Positions 38,746-47,015 of a stretch of DNA of 64,000 nucleotides are shown piece by piece. Below the pieces are notes generated by a model. That model was not told the DNA's origin and made no database searches. It saw only the letters and a program-made list of their open reading frames with translations. This stretch comes from a phage: the sequence record NC_101842.1, one strand, 5' to 3'. Every line of letters begins with the position of its first letter. Position 1 is the first letter of the stretch. The position numbers and the translations under genes are program-made.

Positions 38746-39040
38746 TGCAGTCCTCCTTCTGTAGTAGGTCTTTTATAGGATAAACAAGTAAGTGTGGATC
38801 GGAATAACGTATAGTCCTATTCTGCCACACTATGAACTTTATTACAACCAAATTTACAATATCTTTATCACCATGTAGCCCAACACACACATTTGTCCAT
38901 ATTTTGTGGTTGAAGATCTTGCTATCGATGTAGATTTTAGTGTCAAACTTATCTTCCATTCTACCTATAAGTTTGATCAGCTCCTTCATCTGGTCGCCAA
39001 ACACAGCATCTTTTTCAAGATCTCTGGAATGCTTGTACAT
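38732..39040 (-). CDS. hypothetical protein (102 aa)
   Basis: ORF track. Confidence 0.4.
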   Translation of the reverse strand: MYKHSRDLEKDAVFGDQMKELIKLIGRMEDKFDTKIYIDSKIFNHKIWTNVCVGLHGDKDIVNLVVIKFIVWQNRTIRYSDPHLLVYPIKDLLQKEDCNAVI

Positions 39041-39102
39041 AACTAACTACCTCACTGCATACTTTCCATAATAAGTAAAGCCGGGTAATCCCGGCTATGT
39101 TG

Positions 39103-39816
39103 TTAAATATACTCTGTTACATCCTTGAAGCTCGAAGGCTTCATAATCTTACCTTTACTGTCAAGGAATATAATAACTTTATTACCGTTGTAGAACTCCT
39201 CTTTAGCAACGAAACCTTCGTAGCGACCACCAAAACGACGCTCAAGATCTTCAATCTCTAACTCTATGAGCAATTCAGTAGACATATCTGCACTGGCACC
39301 GTGAGAATATCGTAGATGGTTGATCCGTGCAAACTTGCTGTCATTAGATTTGAGAACCTTCCGCATCATCCCACACACATCGCCGCGAAGCTGGAACAGC
39401 AAAGCTGTTGACAACTCCGCTAAGCGGTAAGCTGACGCTCTTTGCTTGGATGTGTTTTTCGCAGCGATCAGTGTATCATAGAACTCACCGATCTTGAACT
39501 TAAGACCTCGTGGATTATCAAACAGGTTTGACCACTTTTCGTGATTATCATTAACAAGATAAGCGGCATAACTTGTGACAACGTGAAGATCGCAGGCCTC
39601 TTTTAGCAGGTGATCTCCACCATCACCTTTCTCCAGCTCTTCCAAAACCTCATTGAACTCTTCCTCAATGAAGCTAAGCTGTAATTCGAATGGTGTGTAT
39701 GATTTTTTCACTTTAGCTGCCACACGGTTCCAGTTTTCCACCCAGTTGGCAGACCAAAGGTAGTTTTCAGGCTGAGACAGTTTTTCCAGGTTGTCGATCA
39801 GTTTAGTATTCAGCAT
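39103..39816 (-). CDS. MazG-like / all-alpha NTP pyrophosphohydrolase-like protein
   Basis: FIEEEFNEVLEEL...EACDLH resembles EExxE...ExxD metal-binding pattern. Confidence 0.4.
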   Translation of the reverse strand: MLNTKLIDNLEKLSQPENYLWSANWVENWNRVAAKVKKSYTPFELQLSFIEEEFNEVLEELEKGDGGDHLLKEACDLHVVTSYAAYLVNDNHEKWSNLFDNPRGLKFKIGEFYDTLIAAKNTSKQRASAYRLAELSTALLFQLRGDVCGMMRKVLKSNDSKFARINHLRYSHGASADMSTELLIELEIEDLERRFGGRYEGFVAKEEFYNGNKVIIFLDSKGKIMKPSSFKDVTEYI

Positions 39817-39829
39817 TAAAGGTCTCCTT

Positions 39830-40591
39830 TTAAAGTTCCATAAAGTTTTCTACAGTTTCAATAAATGCTTTATCAGAGAAAGCGTCAACAGCACCGTTAA
39901 ACCATACAGGGATCCCGCGATCCTCATATTGATAAAGGTCGCTACGTGAAATGCCACTTCCATCTGCACTCTGCGAGTCATACTTGTTTACAATCAGCAG
40001 TTTTGTGCCTTTACAAGTAGCAGGAAACAATTCCCAGTTAAAATTAATAACTGTGTTAGAACAACCTACTAGGATCACCATATCATTGCTTGTGAGAGAT
40101 GTCAACAGGTCATACATGTCTGTATACTTAGGAGCAACCTCACCGAAGAACACTACATTGGGCTTAACCCAGGTATACTTGCCTGTATCTACCTCCGTGT
40201 ATCCGATATTTTTAATTACATCATTACCTTCAGCATCTTCGTAGGTGATTTCAGGCAAATACCCGTGGACATGTAAAATATCTTCATGTTTTACACCAGC
40301 ACGCTCCAGCAAATCATCTACATTGGTGGTAAGGTTGATCACACGACCAGACCAGCGGGAATACCACTCAGCGATCCGAAGATGTGCAAGGTTAGGATCA
40401 ACACTGCCCAGAGCTACACGACGTGCATTGTAAAAGTCATGCACCTTATAGTAATTCTTGGCAAAGGTGTGGATGTTGCACACCTCATCGATGCTGAAAT
40501 TCTCCCACATTGCAGTGCTACCAGATCGGAAAGTGGGAATACCAGATTCAGCGCTCAAACCAGCACCGGAGATAATAATCAGTCGTCGCAT
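39830..40591 (-). CDS. Sir2/CobB-family NAD-dependent sirtuin-like protein lacking zinc-ribbon cysteines
   Basis: GAGLSAESGIPTFR, FYNARR, TTNVDDLLERAG, HVHG, PNVVFFGE parallel E. coli CobB; no CxxC pairs where the Zn module should be. Confidence 0.75.
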   Translation of the reverse strand: MRRLIIISGAGLSAESGIPTFRSGSTAMWENFSIDEVCNIHTFAKNYYKVHDFYNARRVALGSVDPNLAHLRIAEWYSRWSGRVINLTTNVDDLLERAGVKHEDILHVHGYLPEITYEDAEGNDVIKNIGYTEVDTGKYTWVKPNVVFFGEVAPKYTDMYDLLTSLTSNDMVILVGCSNTVINFNWELFPATCKGTKLLIVNKYDSQSADGSGISRSDLYQYEDRGIPVWFNGAVDAFSDKAFIETVENFMEL

Positions 40592-40599
40592 AAGTGTCC

Positions 40600-40950
40600 T
40601 CAGTAGATGTTTTGTTTAATCTCTATTCCAAACTTCTTGAATGAGTCAGCAGCAAGCATAAATTTACGAGCTGCCGATGGATTAGAAGTATGCACGAAAA
40701 TAATCACGTTGTCAATAAGTGGTGGCTTTCCGAATACAAGTTTCTCCTCTAGCGCAGAGAAGCAGTCGTACCCTTCAAGCACTTCACCTAGATCATTGTC
40801 AAAATACCACTCAGATACGCGTCTGTAGAGCTTTCTCTTATCATTAAGAAAATCCATAAACTCAGAAGAATTCTTTAGCCACAGAGCGTCTAGGAGTCCA
40901 TAATCTGACGGATCTCTAAAATCATCAAGCCACACAATCCACTTCTTCAT
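40600..40950 (-). CDS. hypothetical protein (116 aa)
   Basis: ORF track; ATGA overlap with upstream gene. Confidence 0.45.
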   Translation of the reverse strand: MKKWIVWLDDFRDPSDYGLLDALWLKNSSEFMDFLNDKRKLYRRVSEWYFDNDLGEVLEGYDCFSALEEKLVFGKPPLIDNVIIFVHTSNPSAARKFMLAADSFKKFGIEIKQNIY

Positions 40951-41882
40951 TGCATATAGTCCTCGTTGTGGAAATAGCAGTCAAGTATCTCACGGCGTTC
41001 CTGCTCCAGGAGGCAGTTCCATACATCCTCTGTGTAGTTGTTACGAATGAAGTTTACCATGCCGTAAAACTCTTCGTCAACACGTTTAAAGATATCATCA
41101 TCCCAAATCTTCCAAGCTTTACCCCTCATTACGGCCTTTCGTGCCAGATAGTATGGAGACTTGATCTTCAACTGCAGATCATAAGGGTAGTAAGGCTTAC
41201 GAATCATATATCCTTCACCTCTTGTTTCTGCAGCTAACTCTTTTGCATAGCTGAACGGAATTTCACGCACAGTGTGAGGACGTTTTGCACCAAGGTATTT
41301 GGCAATCCCATCTAAAGCGGCTTCTGGTAGCATTATTCCAGAATCATTATATCTGCAACCTATCAAATATGCGCCATGATCTTCCTGAACAATATGCGGA
41401 TCTGAAGGGTGACAAATTTCAAACATGAATGTCATGTTTTCATTGCCCATAACCTTCTTGATAAGATCTAAATTACCGCATTGCTCCTGGATGGTTTCCT
41501 TTGCAAGGTTACAATATGGGGAATCAAGAGACCCGGTTGTTGAGAACAATAGTTCACCTTTATGAGATGACACCACACCAAGGAATCCGTTCTTTTTCTC
41601 TACCGCCGTCACAAGCTTATTGTCAGGCAGGTTGGTGGAGTTTTCTCCCAAGTTAAACACTTTTGTGAAGGGCCATGCCACAACATTTCCTTCATTACCG
41701 ACAACAATGCCTCGGCACTCCAGTAATCGAGGAGACAAATGCCATAAGTTGTTGTAGAATACTTTTCTGGCATATTTATAGATCTTTAACCCAAGATCTG
41801 GGTAATATCTGCTGGTTACAAGACCTTTGTCAACTAGGTCGTCTGCATTAAAATACTTCATCATACGTTCCTCATTTGTCAT
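40947..41882 (-). CDS. RNA ligase, T4 Rnl1-like
   Basis: LSPRLLECRGIVV and KVFNLGEN match T4 Rnl1 LPDALECRGIMF and KFFNLNEN; motif I lysine in VEKKNGFLG. Confidence 0.7.
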   Translation of the reverse strand: MTNEERMMKYFNADDLVDKGLVTSRYYPDLGLKIYKYARKVFYNNLWHLSPRLLECRGIVVGNEGNVVAWPFTKVFNLGENSTNLPDNKLVTAVEKKNGFLGVVSSHKGELLFSTTGSLDSPYCNLAKETIQEQCGNLDLIKKVMGNENMTFMFEICHPSDPHIVQEDHGAYLIGCRYNDSGIMLPEAALDGIAKYLGAKRPHTVREIPFSYAKELAAETRGEGYMIRKPYYPYDLQLKIKSPYYLARKAVMRGKAWKIWDDDIFKRVDEEFYGMVNFIRNNYTEDVWNCLLEQERREILDCYFHNEDYMQ

Positions 41883-41925
41883 TTTGTCCCTTTATCCTGC
41901 CACACAAATAACCCAGTGTCAACAC

Positions 41926-41954
41926 TTGAAATTAACAAAACAGTTAGGTATACT
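41926..41954 (+). promoter_or_regulatory. sigma70-like promoter TTGAAA-17-TATACT
   Basis: consensus-like hexamers, 17-nt spacer, about 30 nt upstream of kinase start. Confidence 0.55.
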
Positions 41955-41982
41955 ATCATTGAAATTAAAACGGAGGGTTACT

Positions 41983-42390
41983 ATGTCTAAAATGCTATAT
42001 ATCGTGCGTGGTCTACCAGGGTCTGGCAAATCAACACTGGCAAATGCGCTATCTTTAGAAGGTCTGTACCCACATTTTGAGAACGACATGTTCTGGTACG
42101 ACGATGACGGCAATTACAACTGGGATGCAAGTAAAGTAACACTTGCAGCAAAATGGTGCAAAGATCACGTAGAAGATATGATGCGTATGGGATACGACCG
42201 TATCGTGGTAAGTAATACGTTTACAAAAGAAAAATACGTGCAAAAATATATTGACATGGCAATCAGCTATGGGTATAGTTATACCGTAATCGTGGTTGAA
42301 AACCGCCACGGTAATAAAAGCATTCATGCTTCAGACGAGGTTGTGGATCGTATGGAGCGCCAGCTTAAAAACTGCATCAAACTTAAATGA
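41983..42390 (+). CDS. polynucleotide 5'-kinase-like P-loop kinase
   Basis: LYIVRGLPGSGKST resembles T4 Pnk kinase N-terminus; start refined to ATG after acggaggg RBS. Confidence 0.65.
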   Translation: MSKMLYIVRGLPGSGKSTLANALSLEGLYPHFENDMFWYDDDGNYNWDASKVTLAAKWCKDHVEDMMRMGYDRIVVSNTFTKEKYVQKYIDMAISYGYSYTVIVVENRHGNKSIHASDEVVDRMERQLKNCIKLK

Positions 42391-42397
42391 GGAATGT

Positions 42398-42952
42398 ATG
42401 AAATACTTTGTAACAAGCGACACACACTTTCTCCACCAGCGGGTCATGGAGTTTGATTCATGTCAAAAACACAGATCTCAATATGATCACAATCTTGACA
42501 GTATGAATGCGGGAATCATCACCAAGTGGAACTCTGTTGTGTCACCTGCAGACACTGTGTTCCACCTGGGAGATATTGCGTGCACTAATGATAAGAATAT
42601 CAACAACTTACTTCCAGATATTCTAAATATGTTGAACGGACATATTATTCTTGTTCGTGGCAACCATGACACAAGGACGACTGTCAGAATTATGAAAGAG
42701 TTCGGTCATGAGGTTGTAGATTATTACGAGCTTCGCCACAACAAGAATTTGATCTGTATGAGCCATTACCAGTTTGCAAAGTGGAACAGAAAGCCTCACG
42801 GATCAGTCCAACTGTTCGGTCATGCTCACGGAACCACACAACAGTTGTTTGGCAGACAGTTTGATGTCGGTTGGGATGTGTGGGGGAGACTCTTACCATT
42901 AGAAGAGGCATACCGTATTGCAATGAGTTTTGCTATTGACAGCGGGGAGTAA
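42398..42952 (+). CDS. calcineurin-like metallophosphoesterase
   Basis: SDTHF, GDIACTN, GNHD, GHAHG motifs; start refined to MKYFVTSD. Confidence 0.7.
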   Translation: MKYFVTSDTHFLHQRVMEFDSCQKHRSQYDHNLDSMNAGIITKWNSVVSPADTVFHLGDIACTNDKNINNLLPDILNMLNGHIILVRGNHDTRTTVRIMKEFGHEVVDYYELRHNKNLICMSHYQFAKWNRKPHGSVQLFGHAHGTTQQLFGRQFDVGWDVWGRLLPLEEAYRIAMSFAIDSGE

Positions 42953-42999
42953 TCCCTGCTATTTTAAAGAAAATTGCCACACAAGGAGAATCAGGAGAT

Positions 43000-43350
43000 A
43001 TGAAAGATGGGGATAAGCTGCTATATCTTAAAGTCCCCCTTGAAATACTATCTATGTCAAAAGTTTTGAATGACACAACTGGGGAGGTTGTTGTTCTTGA
43101 CTTGTATGACAAGATCGTATACTGCTACCTGCACAACTGGTATAAGCTTGGAGGAAGTTCACGCTTCACACCCAGCACAAGGAAAATTGCAGCAGATGTT
43201 GGAATAAAGAAAACAAAAGCAGCAGCGTGCGTTAAAACTTTAGAATGTGCGGGAGTGGTTGAAATATCCACACAAGGGAGAGGTAAAAGATGCACATTTT
43301 CCAAAGTTTTGCCACCAGAAGAAGTTATTCGAATGTCAACAACTGGTTAG
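43000..43350 (+). CDS. small putative HTH DNA-binding protein (116 aa)
   Basis: helix-turn-helix-like segment TRKIAADVGIKKTKAAACVKTLE; tandem palindromic repeats immediately downstream. Confidence 0.4.
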   Translation: MKDGDKLLYLKVPLEILSMSKVLNDTTGEVVVLDLYDKIVYCYLHNWYKLGGSSRFTPSTRKIAADVGIKKTKAAACVKTLECAGVVEISTQGRGKRCTFSKVLPPEEVIRMSTTG

Positions 43351-43425
43351 ACCAGTAAAAACTTAAATATCTGTACTATAAGGATTCGTATGTTTTATGT
43401 TCGCTCTGGAGCAGAGGTTAGTAAC

Positions 43426-43507
43426 TGTCCGTGATACGGACACTACTGTCCGTCACGCGGACACATCTGCCCGTAATACGGACACTAACTGTCCGTGATA
43501 CGGACAC
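43426..43507. repeat. four tandem 18-bp palindromic iterons (TGTCCGT-N-ACGGACAC), period 21-22 bp
   Basis: copies at 43426-43443, 43447-43464, 43468-43485, 43490-43507. Confidence 0.8.
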
Positions 43508-43640
43508 ATAAAGAATATAACTAAAATAACTAAATAATAAAAAATAAAAGATCTAGTACTTATGGTACTAAGTACATATACTTAACTTATGTAGAATATA
43601 CTAGATCCTAAGTACCATGTTTTAAATTTATTACTTACTA
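43508..43640. other. AT-rich tract with short inverted repeats, adjacent to iterons
   Basis: strongly A+T-biased with TAGTAC/GTACTA and CTAAGTAC repeats. Confidence 0.5.
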
Positions 43641-43905
43641 TGGGCAGTGTCGGCCCTTCATTGGCACTCGCCTACGAGGGGCGAGATGCCGGGCCTCTTT
43701 GGTGCACACAATAACAGAAGTTCATACATACAGGTCTGTTAACATGTGTGGGAGCGAAGCGATAGCGCAGGCCAAAGGCCGAGCACTGATGTGGACCACC
43801 GACGAAAGCTTGCCAGCGCCGTAAGGAGTCGGTTGAGAGTCTCCCGCGCGAGCTTGGATGAAGTTTATGTGTGGAAACTGACAAGAAGGCCCCTAAATCG
43901 CTCCA
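43640..43905 (+). ncRNA. candidate structured non-coding RNA (G+C-rich island with nested stems); strand unknown
   Basis: G+C-rich relative to flanks; nested pairings ggccc/gggcc, ggca/tgcc, ctcgcc/ggcgag at about 43650-43695; only ORF is an antisense low-complexity frame. Confidence 0.25.
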
Positions 43906-44010
43906 CAGCTATATAAACTATACCAGGTAATGCAATCGCACCAGTTTGGTAGAAAAGCTCGTTACAAAGCGATACAGTGAGTTTTTCTATAACTTGAAGA
44001 GGAGGCAGCT

Positions 44011-44589
44011 ATGGGTTCACGCAAAGATGACCGTGAAAAGATTGCAAAACGTTATCAGAATGAAGAACAGATGGAGAAAACTTTCAAGTGGAAGCCCGGT
44101 TTCCAGCGTAATCATTCTAACGCTCGTGATCGTAAGCATCCGGATAAGTGGCTAACACCGCCAAATGATGGCATGCAGGTTGGGGATGAGAAGGAGATGT
44201 CGCCTGGAAAAGATGGCAACTACATTCGCACTAAGGACGCTGGTCCAAAGGATGACAGCTATCTTGTAGATAAGGTTCTTGATGGTATCAATGTAGATGT
44301 TGACACTGCACGAAACCTTTTTCTTGGGTGGTATCGCACAGGTTTTTTCGACATCAAGGCTATTCGTCGTGTTTGTGATATTAAAAAGTCTGCATATGAT
44401 GACGACTCGTTACATCGCACCCTGAGACAATATTCAGAAAGATATGGTCATCCGGTTATCACTCTTGACGATGTTAACGAAGTGATGTATCATGCAGAGG
44501 TTGTTGCAGGAAGATTTGGTGATGCATATCTTGATATCCTTTCTGCAAAGGATGAGGTAATGTTAAATAAGATTTACTATGAACGCTGA
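44011..44589 (+). CDS. hypothetical protein (192 aa)
   Basis: ORF track; strong RBS gaggagg. Confidence 0.5.
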   Translation: MGSRKDDREKIAKRYQNEEQMEKTFKWKPGFQRNHSNARDRKHPDKWLTPPNDGMQVGDEKEMSPGKDGNYIRTKDAGPKDDSYLVDKVLDGINVDVDTARNLFLGWYRTGFFDIKAIRRVCDIKKSAYDDDSLHRTLRQYSERYGHPVITLDDVNEVMYHAEVVAGRFGDAYLDILSAKDEVMLNKIYYER

Positions 44590-44788
44590 GGAGCGCTTAA
44601 TGAACAACCCGGTAGCAAAGAACTGTAATAAGTTCAACAAGTCTGCAATTCACACTGACAGGAAAAAGAGCTGGTCTCCTGACATTGACGAGGAGCTTGA
44701 GAGTTACTTTGAAGACCTGGTCACTAATGCAGATGAGGTTGCGATTAAAGAATACGCAGACAGGAAGGATAAGGCCGGAATCTGTTGA
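44579..44788 (+). CDS. hypothetical small protein (69 aa)
   Basis: ORF track. Confidence 0.4.
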   Translation: MNAEERLMNNPVAKNCNKFNKSAIHTDRKKSWSPDIDEELESYFEDLVTNADEVAIKEYADRKDKAGIC

Positions 44789-44864
44789 CAAAAATAGTGT
44801 TACCTGATAAGATCTGCAATATGATGTGATGCAATTTTAACTTACGAGGTCTACAGGTAATGCT

Positions 44865-45107
44865 ATGTTTAAGGTTAAGCTCGTTTTTCGTTCCATGAAT
44901 GAGGATTATTTAGAAGATGAAGGTGAATTTCGTGCACTGGATGATGCAATAGATTTTGCCAACGACTTAGCTTGTATGAATACGGGTTATGGGCTATGCT
45001 GTTGGGATGGTGGTGTTCAGATCGGTGATAGCAAGATCTTCTACTTCTACCCTGAGCCTGATAACAAACAAATTAAGTATGTTTTATTTATTTGTGCTTT
45101 ACAATGA
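44865..45107 (+). CDS. hypothetical small protein (80 aa)
   Basis: ORF track. Confidence 0.4.
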   Translation: MFKVKLVFRSMNEDYLEDEGEFRALDDAIDFANDLACMNTGYGLCCWDGGVQIGDSKIFYFYPEPDNKQIKYVLFICALQ

Positions 45108-45139
45108 GGTTGTTTTCGTGTATCATGATGAATATCCAA

Positions 45140-45420
45140 TTTAAAGATGAATTTGATGGCTTTATCTCCGGATGCTTTGAAACAGGGTTCGGAGAAGGCT
45201 GAGTTCCCCTTAGAGGGCTTGATAGTGCACCACACTTAAAATGGTAGGGGCAGCCAGCACATGACGATGTGACCCCGGCCAACCTGTAATAAGGTCGAGC
45301 CAAAGTGCGGTAATGGGCTCTGGTAACCCACTTGTTGGGTCTTGCTGGTCCAGGACGCTGGACAAGTCGCATGGAATACCACCCTGCGGCGAACTTGACA
45401 ATCAGTATTTGCTATGATAA
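45140..45420 (+). ncRNA. candidate structured non-coding RNA (second G+C-rich island); strand unknown
   Basis: four overlapping minus-strand ORFs in different frames over the same span indicate stop-codon depletion from composition. Confidence 0.25.
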
Positions 45421-45452
45421 AATCCACCTATCACGTGATAATGGAGGAAACA

Positions 45453-45790
45453 TGGCGGATACAACTAAAAAGCGTCGCCGTAGAGGCAGACCTCTGAAAG
45501 AGGAGTCCAACGCCATTCAGCTAGAGAAGAACATCCTTGATATGAAGGAATCTTTTATAGCGATGGTTCCAGAAGCTCACAAAGTTTTAAGAGAGCTGAT
45601 GTTGGACCCGAAAACCAAACAAAATATTCGTCAAAGCATTGCAGAGTATGTTCTTGATAAGGCAGACCGAATGCAGGAAGAATATGATGAGATGTTTGGT
45701 GAAGAGGAAGAGGTGGTAGTAGAAGAGGCTGAAAAACCAGCACCTTTTATGCCATTTACCACAGAAATACAACCTGTTAGCAATAGCTAA
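45453..45790 (+). CDS. hypothetical protein with N-terminal basic RGRP (AT-hook-like) motif and acidic C-tail
   Basis: MADTTKKRRRRGRPLKEES...; RBS ggagga. Confidence 0.5.
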
Positions 45791-45799
45791 AATATTTTC

Positions 45800-45828
45800 T
45801 TGACAAACTTTGCTTAACAGTGTAATAT
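45800..45828 (+). promoter_or_regulatory. sigma70-like promoter TTGACA-17-TAATAT upstream of tRNA cluster
   Basis: consensus -35, 17-nt spacer, TG immediately before -10. Confidence 0.6.
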
Positions 45829-45886
45829 TGTAAACATGGTCTCCCACCTTTTCTGGCGGCTAAGGTGTAAAAGAAAGCCACCCAGT

Positions 45887-45961
45887 GCCCTGTTAGCTTA
45901 GTGGATAAAGCAGCGGCCTTCTAAGCCGTTGACACTGGTTCGAGTCCAGTACGGGGTGCCA
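45887..45961 (+). tRNA. tRNA-Arg (anticodon TCT)
   Basis: hand-folded cloverleaf: acceptor gccctgt/acggggt, anticodon loop cttctaa, T-loop ttcgagt, encoded CCA. Confidence 0.7.
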
Positions 45962-45965
45962 AATT

Positions 45966-46052
45966 GGGGAGTTATCCCGTAGGGGTAGCGGTGTAGACTG
46001 TAAATCTATTGTCATTGCGACTCGGGTGGTTCGACTCCACCACTCCCCACCA
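45966..46052 (+). tRNA. tRNA-Tyr (anticodon GTA), long variable arm
   Basis: acceptor ggggagt/actcccc, anticodon loop ctgtaaa, T-loop ttcgact, encoded CCA. Confidence 0.75.
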
Positions 46053-46166
46053 AATTTATAGTTTTAAATGCATAAATCATACAGATAATGGCATTGATAT
46101 TTATCGTCGTTTATACTAGTCACTAACTGCTCGAAAATCAGTGTCATTATTAGTATTGTTTATAAA

Positions 46167-46257
46167 TGAGGGTAGGGAGCAATGGTGCTCAAGCGGTCTT
46201 GAAAACCGTCCCGTTGAGGATGACTTGATGATGGTTCGATTCCATTACCCTCAGCCA
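46167..46257 (+). tRNA. tRNA-Ser (anticodon TGA), long variable arm
   Basis: acceptor tgagggt/accctca, 3-bp D stem, anticodon loop cttgaaa, T-loop ttcgatt, discriminator G, encoded CCA. Confidence 0.65.
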
Positions 46258-46355
46258 TATTGTTGACCTTGTAATTAAGCGAAAGCCGGAAGCAGAACCG
46301 GATTATCAAATGTTACAGTCGTCATCGCCGACTAGCAACATGGTCAACATACTGA

Positions 46356-46452
46356 GCTAGGTAAGCCCTTTGGCAAGGGCGAGGATTTTTAATCCTGAAA
46401 ATAGACGAGGTAGTCGTTGAATACATAGGTGGTTCGATTCCATCACCTAGCA
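46356..46452 (+). tRNA. atypical tRNA-like element (97 nt)
   Basis: perfect 7-bp acceptor gctaggt/acctagc, canonical T-arm, D-arm-like hairpin, but irregular anticodon arm and about 29-nt variable region; no CCA. Confidence 0.4.
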
Positions 46453-46459
46453 CCTTTTT

Positions 46460-46535
46460 GCTGATGTAGCACAATTGGTAGTGCAATTGATTTGTAATCA
46501 ATAGGTTGCAGGTTCAAGTCCTGCCATCAGCACCA
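46460..46535 (+). tRNA. tRNA-Thr (anticodon TGT)
   Basis: acceptor gctgatg/catcagc, anticodon loop tttgtaa, T-loop ttcaagt, encoded CCA. Confidence 0.75.
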
Positions 46536-46536
46536 T

Positions 46537-46611
46537 GGCCCTGTAGCTGGAAGGTTCAAGCAAGCGACTCATAATCGCCAGACGGTGGTTCAATTCCACC
46601 CAGGGCCACCA
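46537..46611 (+). tRNA. tRNA-Met or tRNA-Ile2 (anticodon CAT), elongator type
   Basis: acceptor ggccctg/cagggcc with G1-C72, anticodon loop ctcataa, T-loop ttcaatt, encoded CCA. Confidence 0.65.
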
Positions 46612-46622
46612 AATAATAAATA

Positions 46623-46699
46623 CTCCGCGTAGCTCAGCTTGGTAGAGCGCCTGATTTGGGATCAGGAGGTCGAGTGTTCGAATCACTCCGTGGAGACCA
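46623..46699 (+). tRNA. tRNA-Pro (anticodon TGG)
   Basis: C1-G72 start, D-loop agcttggta, anticodon loop tttggga, T-loop ttcgaat, encoded CCA. Confidence 0.75.
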
Positions 46700-46745
46700 C
46701 TTTCAGTTATACTTTAAACATATACAAACAAAAGGAACCTTTAAA

Positions 46746-47015
46746 ATGTATACACTTAAAATTGTAGAGCGTGTAAATCCAACCCATACCGTAGATTTTC
46801 GTGACGATTTCAATCCTCTGGCTGTAAATCTTCGAGAGTCATATCATGAACTCAGCTGCGATGCAGTGGTGGTCTTTTTTGAAGACAACTCTGAAGGGGC
46901 GGTAGCTTGTGTTGTTGATAGTGAGCAGAAGTTTTATATTTACAGAGATGTAGATGCATACTTGATGAATGAAAATGCAGTTACTGTTAGAATCATCCAC
47001 CGAGTGCCTCGATAA
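46746..47015 (+). CDS. hypothetical protein (89 aa, start refined after tRNA-Pro)
   Basis: listed ORF start overlaps tRNA-Pro; internal ATG has aaggaa RBS. Confidence 0.45.
   Translation: MYTLKIVERVNPTHTVDFRDDFNPLAVNLRESYHELSCDAVVVFFEDNSEGAVACVVDSEQKFYIYRDVDAYLMNENAVTVRIIHRVPR

Follow-up and report, generated by a model that had tools for sequence, protein, structure and literature searches.

The stretch of phage DNA analysed here (NC_101842.1, 64,000 nucleotides, hereafter the window) carries at positions 39103-42952 a cluster of six genes, which we take, with a probability of about 0.7, to be a cassette for the repair of RNA breaks by healing and sealing of the broken ends. Its core consists of an Rnl1-like ATP-dependent RNA ligase (40947-41882, minus strand), a polynucleotide-kinase-like P-loop kinase (41983-42390, plus strand) and a dinuclear metallophosphoesterase (MPE; 42398-42952, plus strand), and these are joined by genes for a cREC (cyclic-phosphate processing receiver-like) protein, a sirtuin and a MazG-like enzyme. 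We favour this reading because the kinase and the phosphoesterase are persistently linked to one of two RNA ligase families, and because they are found fused to a ligase or replaced by bona fide Pnkp healing domains. The phage belongs to the rV5-like myoviruses (Vequintavirus) and shares 96-100% identity with public genomes in which the genes of the cluster already bear annotations. Furthermore, the locus matches the phage V5 prototype of a published repair neighbourhood (PMC9503650), and the role of the cluster is thus already known as a computational prediction.

The core proteins

All three core open reading frames (ORFs) were located where a first-pass annotation of the window had placed them, and the identities that it proposed were upheld by profile searches of each ORF and by structure comparison. 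The ligase, of 311 amino acids (305 from an alternative start at 41864), matches the Pfam family PF09511 RNA_lig_T4_1 with an E value of 6.4e-15 (56 bits, against a cutoff of 28.3). A search of the solved structures with the single sequence gave nothing useful and a homolog profile was needed; the profile of 45 ligase homologs matches T4 Rnl1 (2C5U) with an E value of 1.1e-12, and no other ligase among the solved structures at E <= 1. The AlphaFold model of the ligase (predicted local distance difference test score, 93) has T4 Rnl1 (5TT6, 9DO4 and 2C5U) as its top Foldseek matches, followed by Rnl3 and the ligase domains of fungal Trl1. Nucleotidyltransferase motifs I, III, IV and V are present (K96xNG99, E155, E223-G224 and K239xK241), the motif I lysine included. 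In the 45 homologs, R57, K74, F76, K96/G99, E155, E223/G224 and K239/K241 are invariant, and they align with R54, K75, F77, K99/G102, E159, E227/G228 and K240/K242 of the T4 enzyme. This invariance of the catalytic residues across the clade suggests that the ligase should be an active adenylyltransferase, with K96 as the predicted adenylylation lysine.

The kinase is a stand-alone protein of 135 amino acids (AAA_33, E value 8.5e-11) from a family with more than 7,900 matches, the majority of which are likewise stand-alone and 130-135 amino acids long. The P-loop (G10-LPGSGKS-T18), D35, an NTF motif, E106-N-R-H109 and H115 are invariant in 39 homologs, and D35 aligns with the catalytic general base D35 of T4 Pnk. 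Again, the single sequence found nothing useful among the solved structures and a homolog profile was required. The best matches of the profile are a stand-alone RNA 5'-OH kinase from Rhizopus (9D8A, E value 1.7e-6; described in PMC11571804), Pnkp1, T4 Pnk, PSTK and CthPnk, and nearly all of its top matches are polynucleotide or RNA kinases. The protein ends at residue 135, without a fused C-terminal HAD (DxDxT) 3'-phosphatase domain.

The MPE, of 184 amino acids, scores above the cutoffs of both Metallophos_2 and Metallophos and shows the dinuclear metal-site pattern (DxH, GD, GNH[DE], H, GHxH); its metal ligands D8, H10, D59, N89, H123, H142 and H144, together with H90, are invariant in 38 homologs. 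Its description in the first-pass annotation as a calcineurin-type phosphoesterase is correct at the level of the superfamily, but the protein lacks the signature of the lambda-phosphatase/CthPnkp subfamily (GDxHG, GDxxDRG, GNHE), its closest structural similarity is not to lambda phosphatase or 4J6O, and it belongs instead to the uncharacterised aq_1665 subfamily. An RNA end-healing phosphatase of the MPE type is already known from bacterial Pnkp (PMC2190708); the MPE of the window is not a homologue of that subfamily, the one for which RNA end healing has been demonstrated. Only from its gene context do we infer that it removes 2',3'-phosphates.

Linkage, fusions and rival explanations

Conservation of the gene neighbourhood was examined in a ligase-centred set of 84 loci, comprising 80 IMG/VR loci with ligases 35-49% identical to that of the window, the window itself and three more. 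The kinase profile matches 77 of these loci and the MPE profile 65. When lineages are defined as ligase clusters at 60% identity (n = 35) and linkage as occurrence within 3 kb of the ligase, the kinase is linked in 29 lineages, the MPE in 30 and both in 25; thus ligase, kinase and MPE are a conserved core. The sirtuin occurs in 3 and cREC in 2 of the 35 lineages, so that from the viewpoint of the ligase, and in contrast to the emphasis of PMC9503650, the constant partners are the MPE and the kinase, whereas the sirtuin and cREC are restricted to a few lineages. The ligase clade is present in 665 phage records, including phages of Escherichia, Pseudomonas, Vibrio, Streptomyces, Klebsiella, Acinetobacter and others, and is rare in cellular genomes (33 loci among 185,579 species).

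The first-pass annotation had regarded the arrangement as a non-canonical split layout. Separate genes for kinase, MPE and ligase are the norm in the clade, and the use of an MPE for end healing has a precedent in the bacterial enzyme cited above; what is peculiar is the divergent orientation, which is confined to the rV5 group. The usual order, on a single strand, is MPE-ligase-kinase or kinase-ligase-MPE, and among the 84 loci the kinase and the MPE lie on the strand opposite to the ligase only in the window, in phage Bas48 and in one contig that is 89% identical. In the nearest outgroups, phages of 145-149 kb, the genes are co-directional in the order MPE, ligase, cREC, kinase, sirtuin, DNA ligase and MazG. 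The divergent layout is thus a rearrangement peculiar to the rV5 group, not a design principle.

Kinase-centred and MPE-centred loci gave a wider view of the same partners. Of 78 kinase-centred loci, 50 contain the MPE, 26 have an Rnl1-like ligase and 25 an RNA ligase of an unrelated family (PF09414 with a PHA02142 OB fold); a ligase is missing from 33, just 14 of which have 5 kb of flank on both sides. The MPE-centred scan was seeded by a narrower MPE alignment, the first and wider one being too divergent, and yielded 79 loci, 42 of them with full flanks. The Rnl1-like ligase was found in 32 of the 79, and 25 of those 32 also have an ORF that matches the kinase profile (E <= 0.01). Three of the recurrent ORFs of about 153 amino acids in the MPE-centred loci, scanned singly, proved to be AAA_33 kinases (E values from 1e-17 to 1e-21), and a search of the solved structures with one of the three gave mammalian PNKP, CthPnk and T4 Pnk as best matches.

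Natural fusions connect the same activities. Kinase-ligase fusions of 420-430 amino acids occur in eleven viral loci, and four loci of Cardiobacteriaceae have a kinase-ligase fusion with an aq_1665-type MPE downstream. In Leptolyngbyaceae cyanobacteria, fusions of about 710 amino acids join a CthPnk-like kinase (E value 3.5e-11) and a CthPnkp-type phosphatase (4J6O, E value 2.5e-24) to a ligase of the same clade as that of the window. The possibility of a hidden phosphatase between kinase and ligase in the viral fusions was rejected, as the kinase abuts the ligase; a fused phosphatase domain was found only in the cyanobacterial proteins. The folds, the intact catalytic residues, the operon anatomy, the linkage and the fusions are direct observations; the linkage, seen in dozens of phage lineages, and the fusions back the healing-and-sealing role that had been assigned in the first pass.

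One alternative is that the genes serve small-molecule metabolism or anti-signalling, with the kinase, MPE, sirtuin, cREC and MazG acting on nucleotides or on NAD/ADP-ribose-derived or cyclic-nucleotide immune signals, and with the ligase functionally separate. The NAD/ADP-ribose (NAD, nicotinamide adenine dinucleotide) network described in PMC9503650 includes cREC, sirtuin and MazG alike, and many relatives of the MPE are phosphodiesterases of small molecules. In addition, a Nudix hydrolase of 139 amino acids is the commonest same-strand neighbour of the kinase where the Rnl1-like ligase is missing (25 of 52 such kinase-centred loci; for example, L149:2529-2948). In two relatives with 45%-identical ligases (L002:2715-5378 and L003:9973-14489), the ligase-kinase pair lies a few kb from NAPRTase and PRPP-synthetase-like genes, and locus L003 also carries a Macro-domain gene and a second Metallophos gene. 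Such neighbours fit this alternative, and those in the two relatives also hint that RNA repair and NAD salvage may be repeatedly linked. Nevertheless, the kinase-ligase and kinase-MPE-ligase fusions argue for a common polynucleotide substrate, and the core trio occurs without sirtuin, cREC or MazG in most lineages, which makes a purely small-molecule role unlikely.

The fusions and the neighbours also bear on the idea that the kinase and the MPE clean 5'-OH/3'-phosphate DNA ends for phage replication or recombination, in which case the clustering would reflect a general nucleic-acid repair island. The ligase-type partner that is fused or adjacent to the kinase always belongs to an RNA ligase family (Rnl1-like or PF09414), a DNA ligase is neither adjacent nor fused, and the nearest kinase relatives of solved structure are RNA 5'-OH kinases; DNA-end processing thus seems quite improbable. 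It is very improbable indeed that the ligase is mainly a tail-fibre attachment catalyst (the second activity of T4 gp63) with the kinase and MPE nearby by chance, as its PHROG and GenBank labels, RNA ligase and tail fiber attachment catalyst, might suggest, since this label was carried over from T4 gp63, the gene lies among early nucleotide-metabolism genes and not tail genes, the adenylyltransferase residues are all strictly conserved, and linkage and fusions are with the kinase, not with structural genes.

Gene map, promoters and flanking elements

The span assigned to the module in the first pass, 40947-42952, proved too narrow, because the ligase gene heads a leftward array that includes the cREC, sirtuin and MazG-like genes of the published six-gene neighbourhood. 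The cREC gene (40600-40950, minus strand; 116 amino acids; PF20274, E value 1.8e-13) comes next to the ligase, its ATG and the ligase stop codon sharing a 4-nucleotide overlap. After a gap of 8 nucleotides follows the sirtuin (SIR2) gene (39830-40591, minus strand; 253 amino acids; PF02146, E value 6.9e-28; phrog_2162, E value 1.5e-108), whose product has the GAGxSxxxGIPxFR, TTNVD and HG motifs and lacks the Cys4 zinc module. A further gap of 13 nucleotides separates it from the gene for the MazG-like nucleotide pyrophosphohydrolase (39103-39816, minus strand; 237 amino acids; phrog_671, E value 5.7e-22; no Pfam match). Tight operonic coupling of these three genes to the ligase is thereby confirmed in the window, and the four genes look like a single leftward transcription unit facing the rightward kinase-MPE pair. 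A terminator-like hairpin (39079-39096, minus strand; 7-bp stem with 6 G-C pairs), 7 nucleotides past the stop codon of the MazG-like gene, is the probable end of the unit. As for the start of the ligase, a Shine-Dalgarno-like GAGGA at 41873-41869 favours initiation 6-7 codons downstream of the first possible start, and the annotation of phage Bas48 gives the protein as 305 amino acids. Taken together, the first-pass annotation is partly supported: its gene identities and the likely role hold up, but its boundaries were incomplete and its view of the layout as novel was mistaken.

It had also proposed a consensus promoter between ligase and kinase, and the 100-nucleotide gap indeed holds a near-consensus sigma-70-like promoter for the kinase and the MPE, TTGAAA-17-TATACT (41926-41954, plus strand; 10/12 match). 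The kinase ATG is preceded by GGAGG at 6 nucleotides, and the MPE starts 7 nucleotides after the kinase stop codon, with a GAGGA that overlaps the end of the kinase gene. Promoter-like sigma-70 matches are frequent in the region (32 in the 8 kb from 39000 to 47000, against 16.9 +/- 4.1 expected from shuffled sequence), and the case for this promoter therefore rests on position and conservation. Its -35 and -10 hexamers and the GGAGG are invariant across 5 Vequintavirus genomes, with substitutions confined to the spacer, which is weak evidence because the genomes compared are 90-100% identical (0-10% diverged). The excess of matches is consistent with an early region transcribed by the host RNA polymerase; several matches of 10-11/12 lie on the plus strand at 42.2-45.8 kb. 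On the minus strand, a TTGACA hexamer (41917-41922), also invariant in the 5 genomes, stands back to back with the rightward -35. It has no canonical -10 at 16-18 nucleotides, the best candidate being GATAAA at 19 nucleotides.

The tRNA cluster, reported in the first pass as 3 kb downstream, begins 2.9 kb past the MPE and consists of seven genes (45887-46699, plus strand): Arg-TCT, Tyr-GTA, Ser-TGA, an atypical Lys-TTT, Thr-TGT, CAT and Pro-TGG. As the kinase and MPE are driven rightward from the sigma-70 promoter, on the same strand as the tRNAs, the kinase, the MPE and the tRNA cluster are all probably expressed early. The atypical tRNA (46356-46454; 97-99 nucleotides) has a cloverleaf with a UUU (Lys) anticodon loop and, at the variable position, an extra region of about 28 nucleotides with a 5-bp hairpin. 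ARAGORN assigns it a 4-base anticodon, the Rfam tRNA model gives 35.5 bits, and in Bas48 it is annotated as tRNA-Lys; tRNA-Thr(UGU) follows at 46460-46535. Since tRNA-Lys is the target of PrrC and PARIS, the atypical tRNA might be a nuclease-resistant substitute.

Between the MPE and the tRNAs, a 660-nucleotide ORF-free gap contains four tandem repeats of 21-22 nucleotides (43422-43507), each with the palindrome TGTCCGT-N4-ACGGACA. The array follows closely on an HTH_36/DUF6945 gene (43000-43350; phrog_12838, 'replication initiation protein'), and the cumulative GC skew reaches its minimum nearby (about 42 kb), where the leftward and rightward gene blocks diverge. The repeats are a candidate iteron-type origin or operator array.

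In GenBank, 119 phage records match the 2.35 kb around the three core genes (40600-42952) at 90-100% nucleotide identity, and in these the genes are already labelled "RNA ligase", "polynucleotide kinase" and "phosphoesterase". Escherichia phage EdH4 has a ligase protein 100% identical to that of the window. About 18-23 records titled 'Campylobacter phage' (e.g. MG065652 and MG065666) share 90-98% identity with this E. coli Vequintavirus. Descriptions were read for two of them, both marked UNVERIFIED, and annotation is absent from all of those listed; their host labels are probably wrong or derived from contamination.

The proposed repair pathway and known systems

In the pathway that we propose, the 135-residue kinase would phosphorylate the 5'-OH end of a broken RNA, the aq_1665-type MPE would take off the 2',3'-cyclic or 3'-phosphate to leave a 3'-OH, and the Rnl1-like ligase, adenylylated on K96, would seal the 3'-OH to the 5'-phosphate. 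We infer each of these enzymatic steps, as well as tRNA as the substrate and the counter-defence role. A NAD-dependent branch has been predicted by Iyer, Burroughs, Anantharaman and Aravind (2022; Viruses 14:1977, PMC9503650), in which cREC would open the cyclic phosphate and the sirtuin would strip the 2'-phosphate in the manner of KptA/Tpt1; in Vequintavirus and its closest relatives, cREC, the sirtuin and the MazG-like enzyme are probably co-transcribed with the ligase.

These authors described a sirtuin-centred phage RNA-repair neighbourhood, type 2, with Escherichia phage V5 and Proteus phage Mydo as prototypes, and predicted NAD-dependent RNA repair for it. In medium-sized proteobacterial phages it comprises a sirtuin, cREC, MazG, a nucleotide kinase and a T4-like ligase, to which a calcineurin-like phosphoesterase may be added, and all six are present at 39103-42952; the cluster of the window is that system, with no essential difference. 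The present analysis adds that the MPE and the kinase, and not the sirtuin, are the constant partners of the ligase, that kinase-ligase fusions exist, that the MPE belongs to an uncharacterised subfamily and that the divergent arrangement is derived. The individual activities can be compared with three established systems.

T4 Pnkp and Rnl1 form a pathway for the repair of tRNA-Lys that counters the anticodon nuclease PrrC. The cluster resembles it in its logic, with a predicted 5' kinase, a predicted 3'-phosphate-removing enzyme and a ligase that shares both the Rnl1 fold and the catalytic residues, and differs from it in that the phosphatase is a separate MPE, whereas in T4 it is a HAD domain fused to the kinase. 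In Clostridium thermocellum Pnkp/Hen1, the kinase, the MPE phosphatase and the ligase reside in a single polypeptide (PMC2190708, PMC1920235). The combination of a dinuclear metallophosphoesterase, a P-loop polynucleotide kinase and a ligase is shared with the cluster, and in the cyanobacterial fusions its ligase clade is joined to kinase and phosphatase domains of the CthPnkp-like kind; however, the window has three separate genes, and no Hen1 gene was seen in the immediate neighbourhood. In fungal and plant tRNA splicing, Trl1 makes a ligation that retains the 2'-phosphate, which is then removed by Tpt1 in a NAD-dependent reaction. The ligase model matches the Trl1 ligase domains nearly as well as T4 Rnl1 (E values of 3e-11 and 6e-12, respectively), a stand-alone RNA kinase from a fungus is the best match of the kinase, and the Tpt1 and cyclic-phosphodiesterase roles have been proposed for the sirtuin and cREC (PMC9503650). 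On the other hand, the cluster is without a 2H cyclic phosphodiesterase and without a KptA/Tpt1 gene, and the sequence profile of the ligase finds T4 Rnl1, not Trl1.

Several observations weigh against RNA break repair, or against tRNA as its substrate. The kinase is a minimal protein that, unlike T4 Pnk, has no equivalent of the acceptor-binding R38, an aromatic residue occupying that region (W38; F or Y in homologs). In T4 Rnl1, R54, K75, F77 and K119 are reportedly essential according to mutagenesis from the Shuman laboratory; the position of K119 is an invariant Thr (T116) in the ligase clade. The ligase is about 18-20% identical to T4 Rnl1 and scores 39.3 bits against the NCBIfam equivalog TIGR02308 (cutoff, 242), and it is classified on sequence as a member of the Rnl1 superfamily and not as an RnlA equivalog. 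Whereas the all-helical C-terminal domain of T4 Rnl1 spans about 120 amino acids (residues 255-374), that of the ligase is about half as long, with some 65 amino acids after motif V that form four short helices at 243-305, and positions 250-373 of TIGR02308 are unmatched. Work from the same laboratory is said to have shown that the C-terminal domain gives T4 Rnl1 its tRNA preference. With the short C-terminal domain, the replacement of K119 and the low TIGR02308 score, tRNA specificity is therefore not established for the ligase. Furthermore, roughly half of the MPE family has no ligase nearby, any RNA ligase is found in only 16 of the 42 full-flank MPE-centred loci, and the MPE family is thus not dedicated to RNA repair and has other contexts. 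The gap between ligase and kinase contains no canonical sigma-70 promoter for the leftward ligase operon. Finally, our literature search for experiments on RNA repair in Vequintavirus found none, with no biochemical or genetic data for any component.

RNA break repair nonetheless remains our preferred reading, and a role in counter-defence against host anticodon nucleases is plausible by analogy: T4 and PrrC offer a precedent, a tRNA cluster is adjacent, and defences that cleave tRNA are abundant. More tentatively, and with somewhat less than even confidence, we consider that the aq_1665-type MPE may be a third, independently recruited class of RNA 3'-end-healing enzyme, beside the T4 HAD and CthPnkp types. 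With a minimal kinase of 130-155 amino acids and an Rnl1-like ligase, it would make up a self-sufficient tRNA-repair cassette, carried by more than 600 phages sequenced to date (from Escherichia, Pseudomonas, Vibrio, Streptomyces and other hosts). The cREC/sirtuin branch would extend the cassette in Vequintavirinae and would give a bacterial virus a eukaryote-style (Trl1/Tpt1-like) NAD-dependent 2'-phosphate pathway.

Systems of defence that cleave tRNA have multiplied in the recent literature on enterobacteria; a 2026 preprint lists PrrC/RloC, PARIS, retron-Septu, Old, Cas13, HepS and others. Because the BASEL isolates of Vequintavirus (Bas48-Bas59) grow on E. coli K-12, the cluster is a tractable experimental target. 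To our knowledge, T4 Pnkp/Rnl1 is essentially the sole phage repair system that has been tested experimentally. If RNA break repair is indeed its role, the rV5-type cassette would be a second and far more widespread repair solution, and a function would be assigned to the orphan aq_1665 family of metallophosphoesterases and to the sirtuin and cREC proteins of phages.

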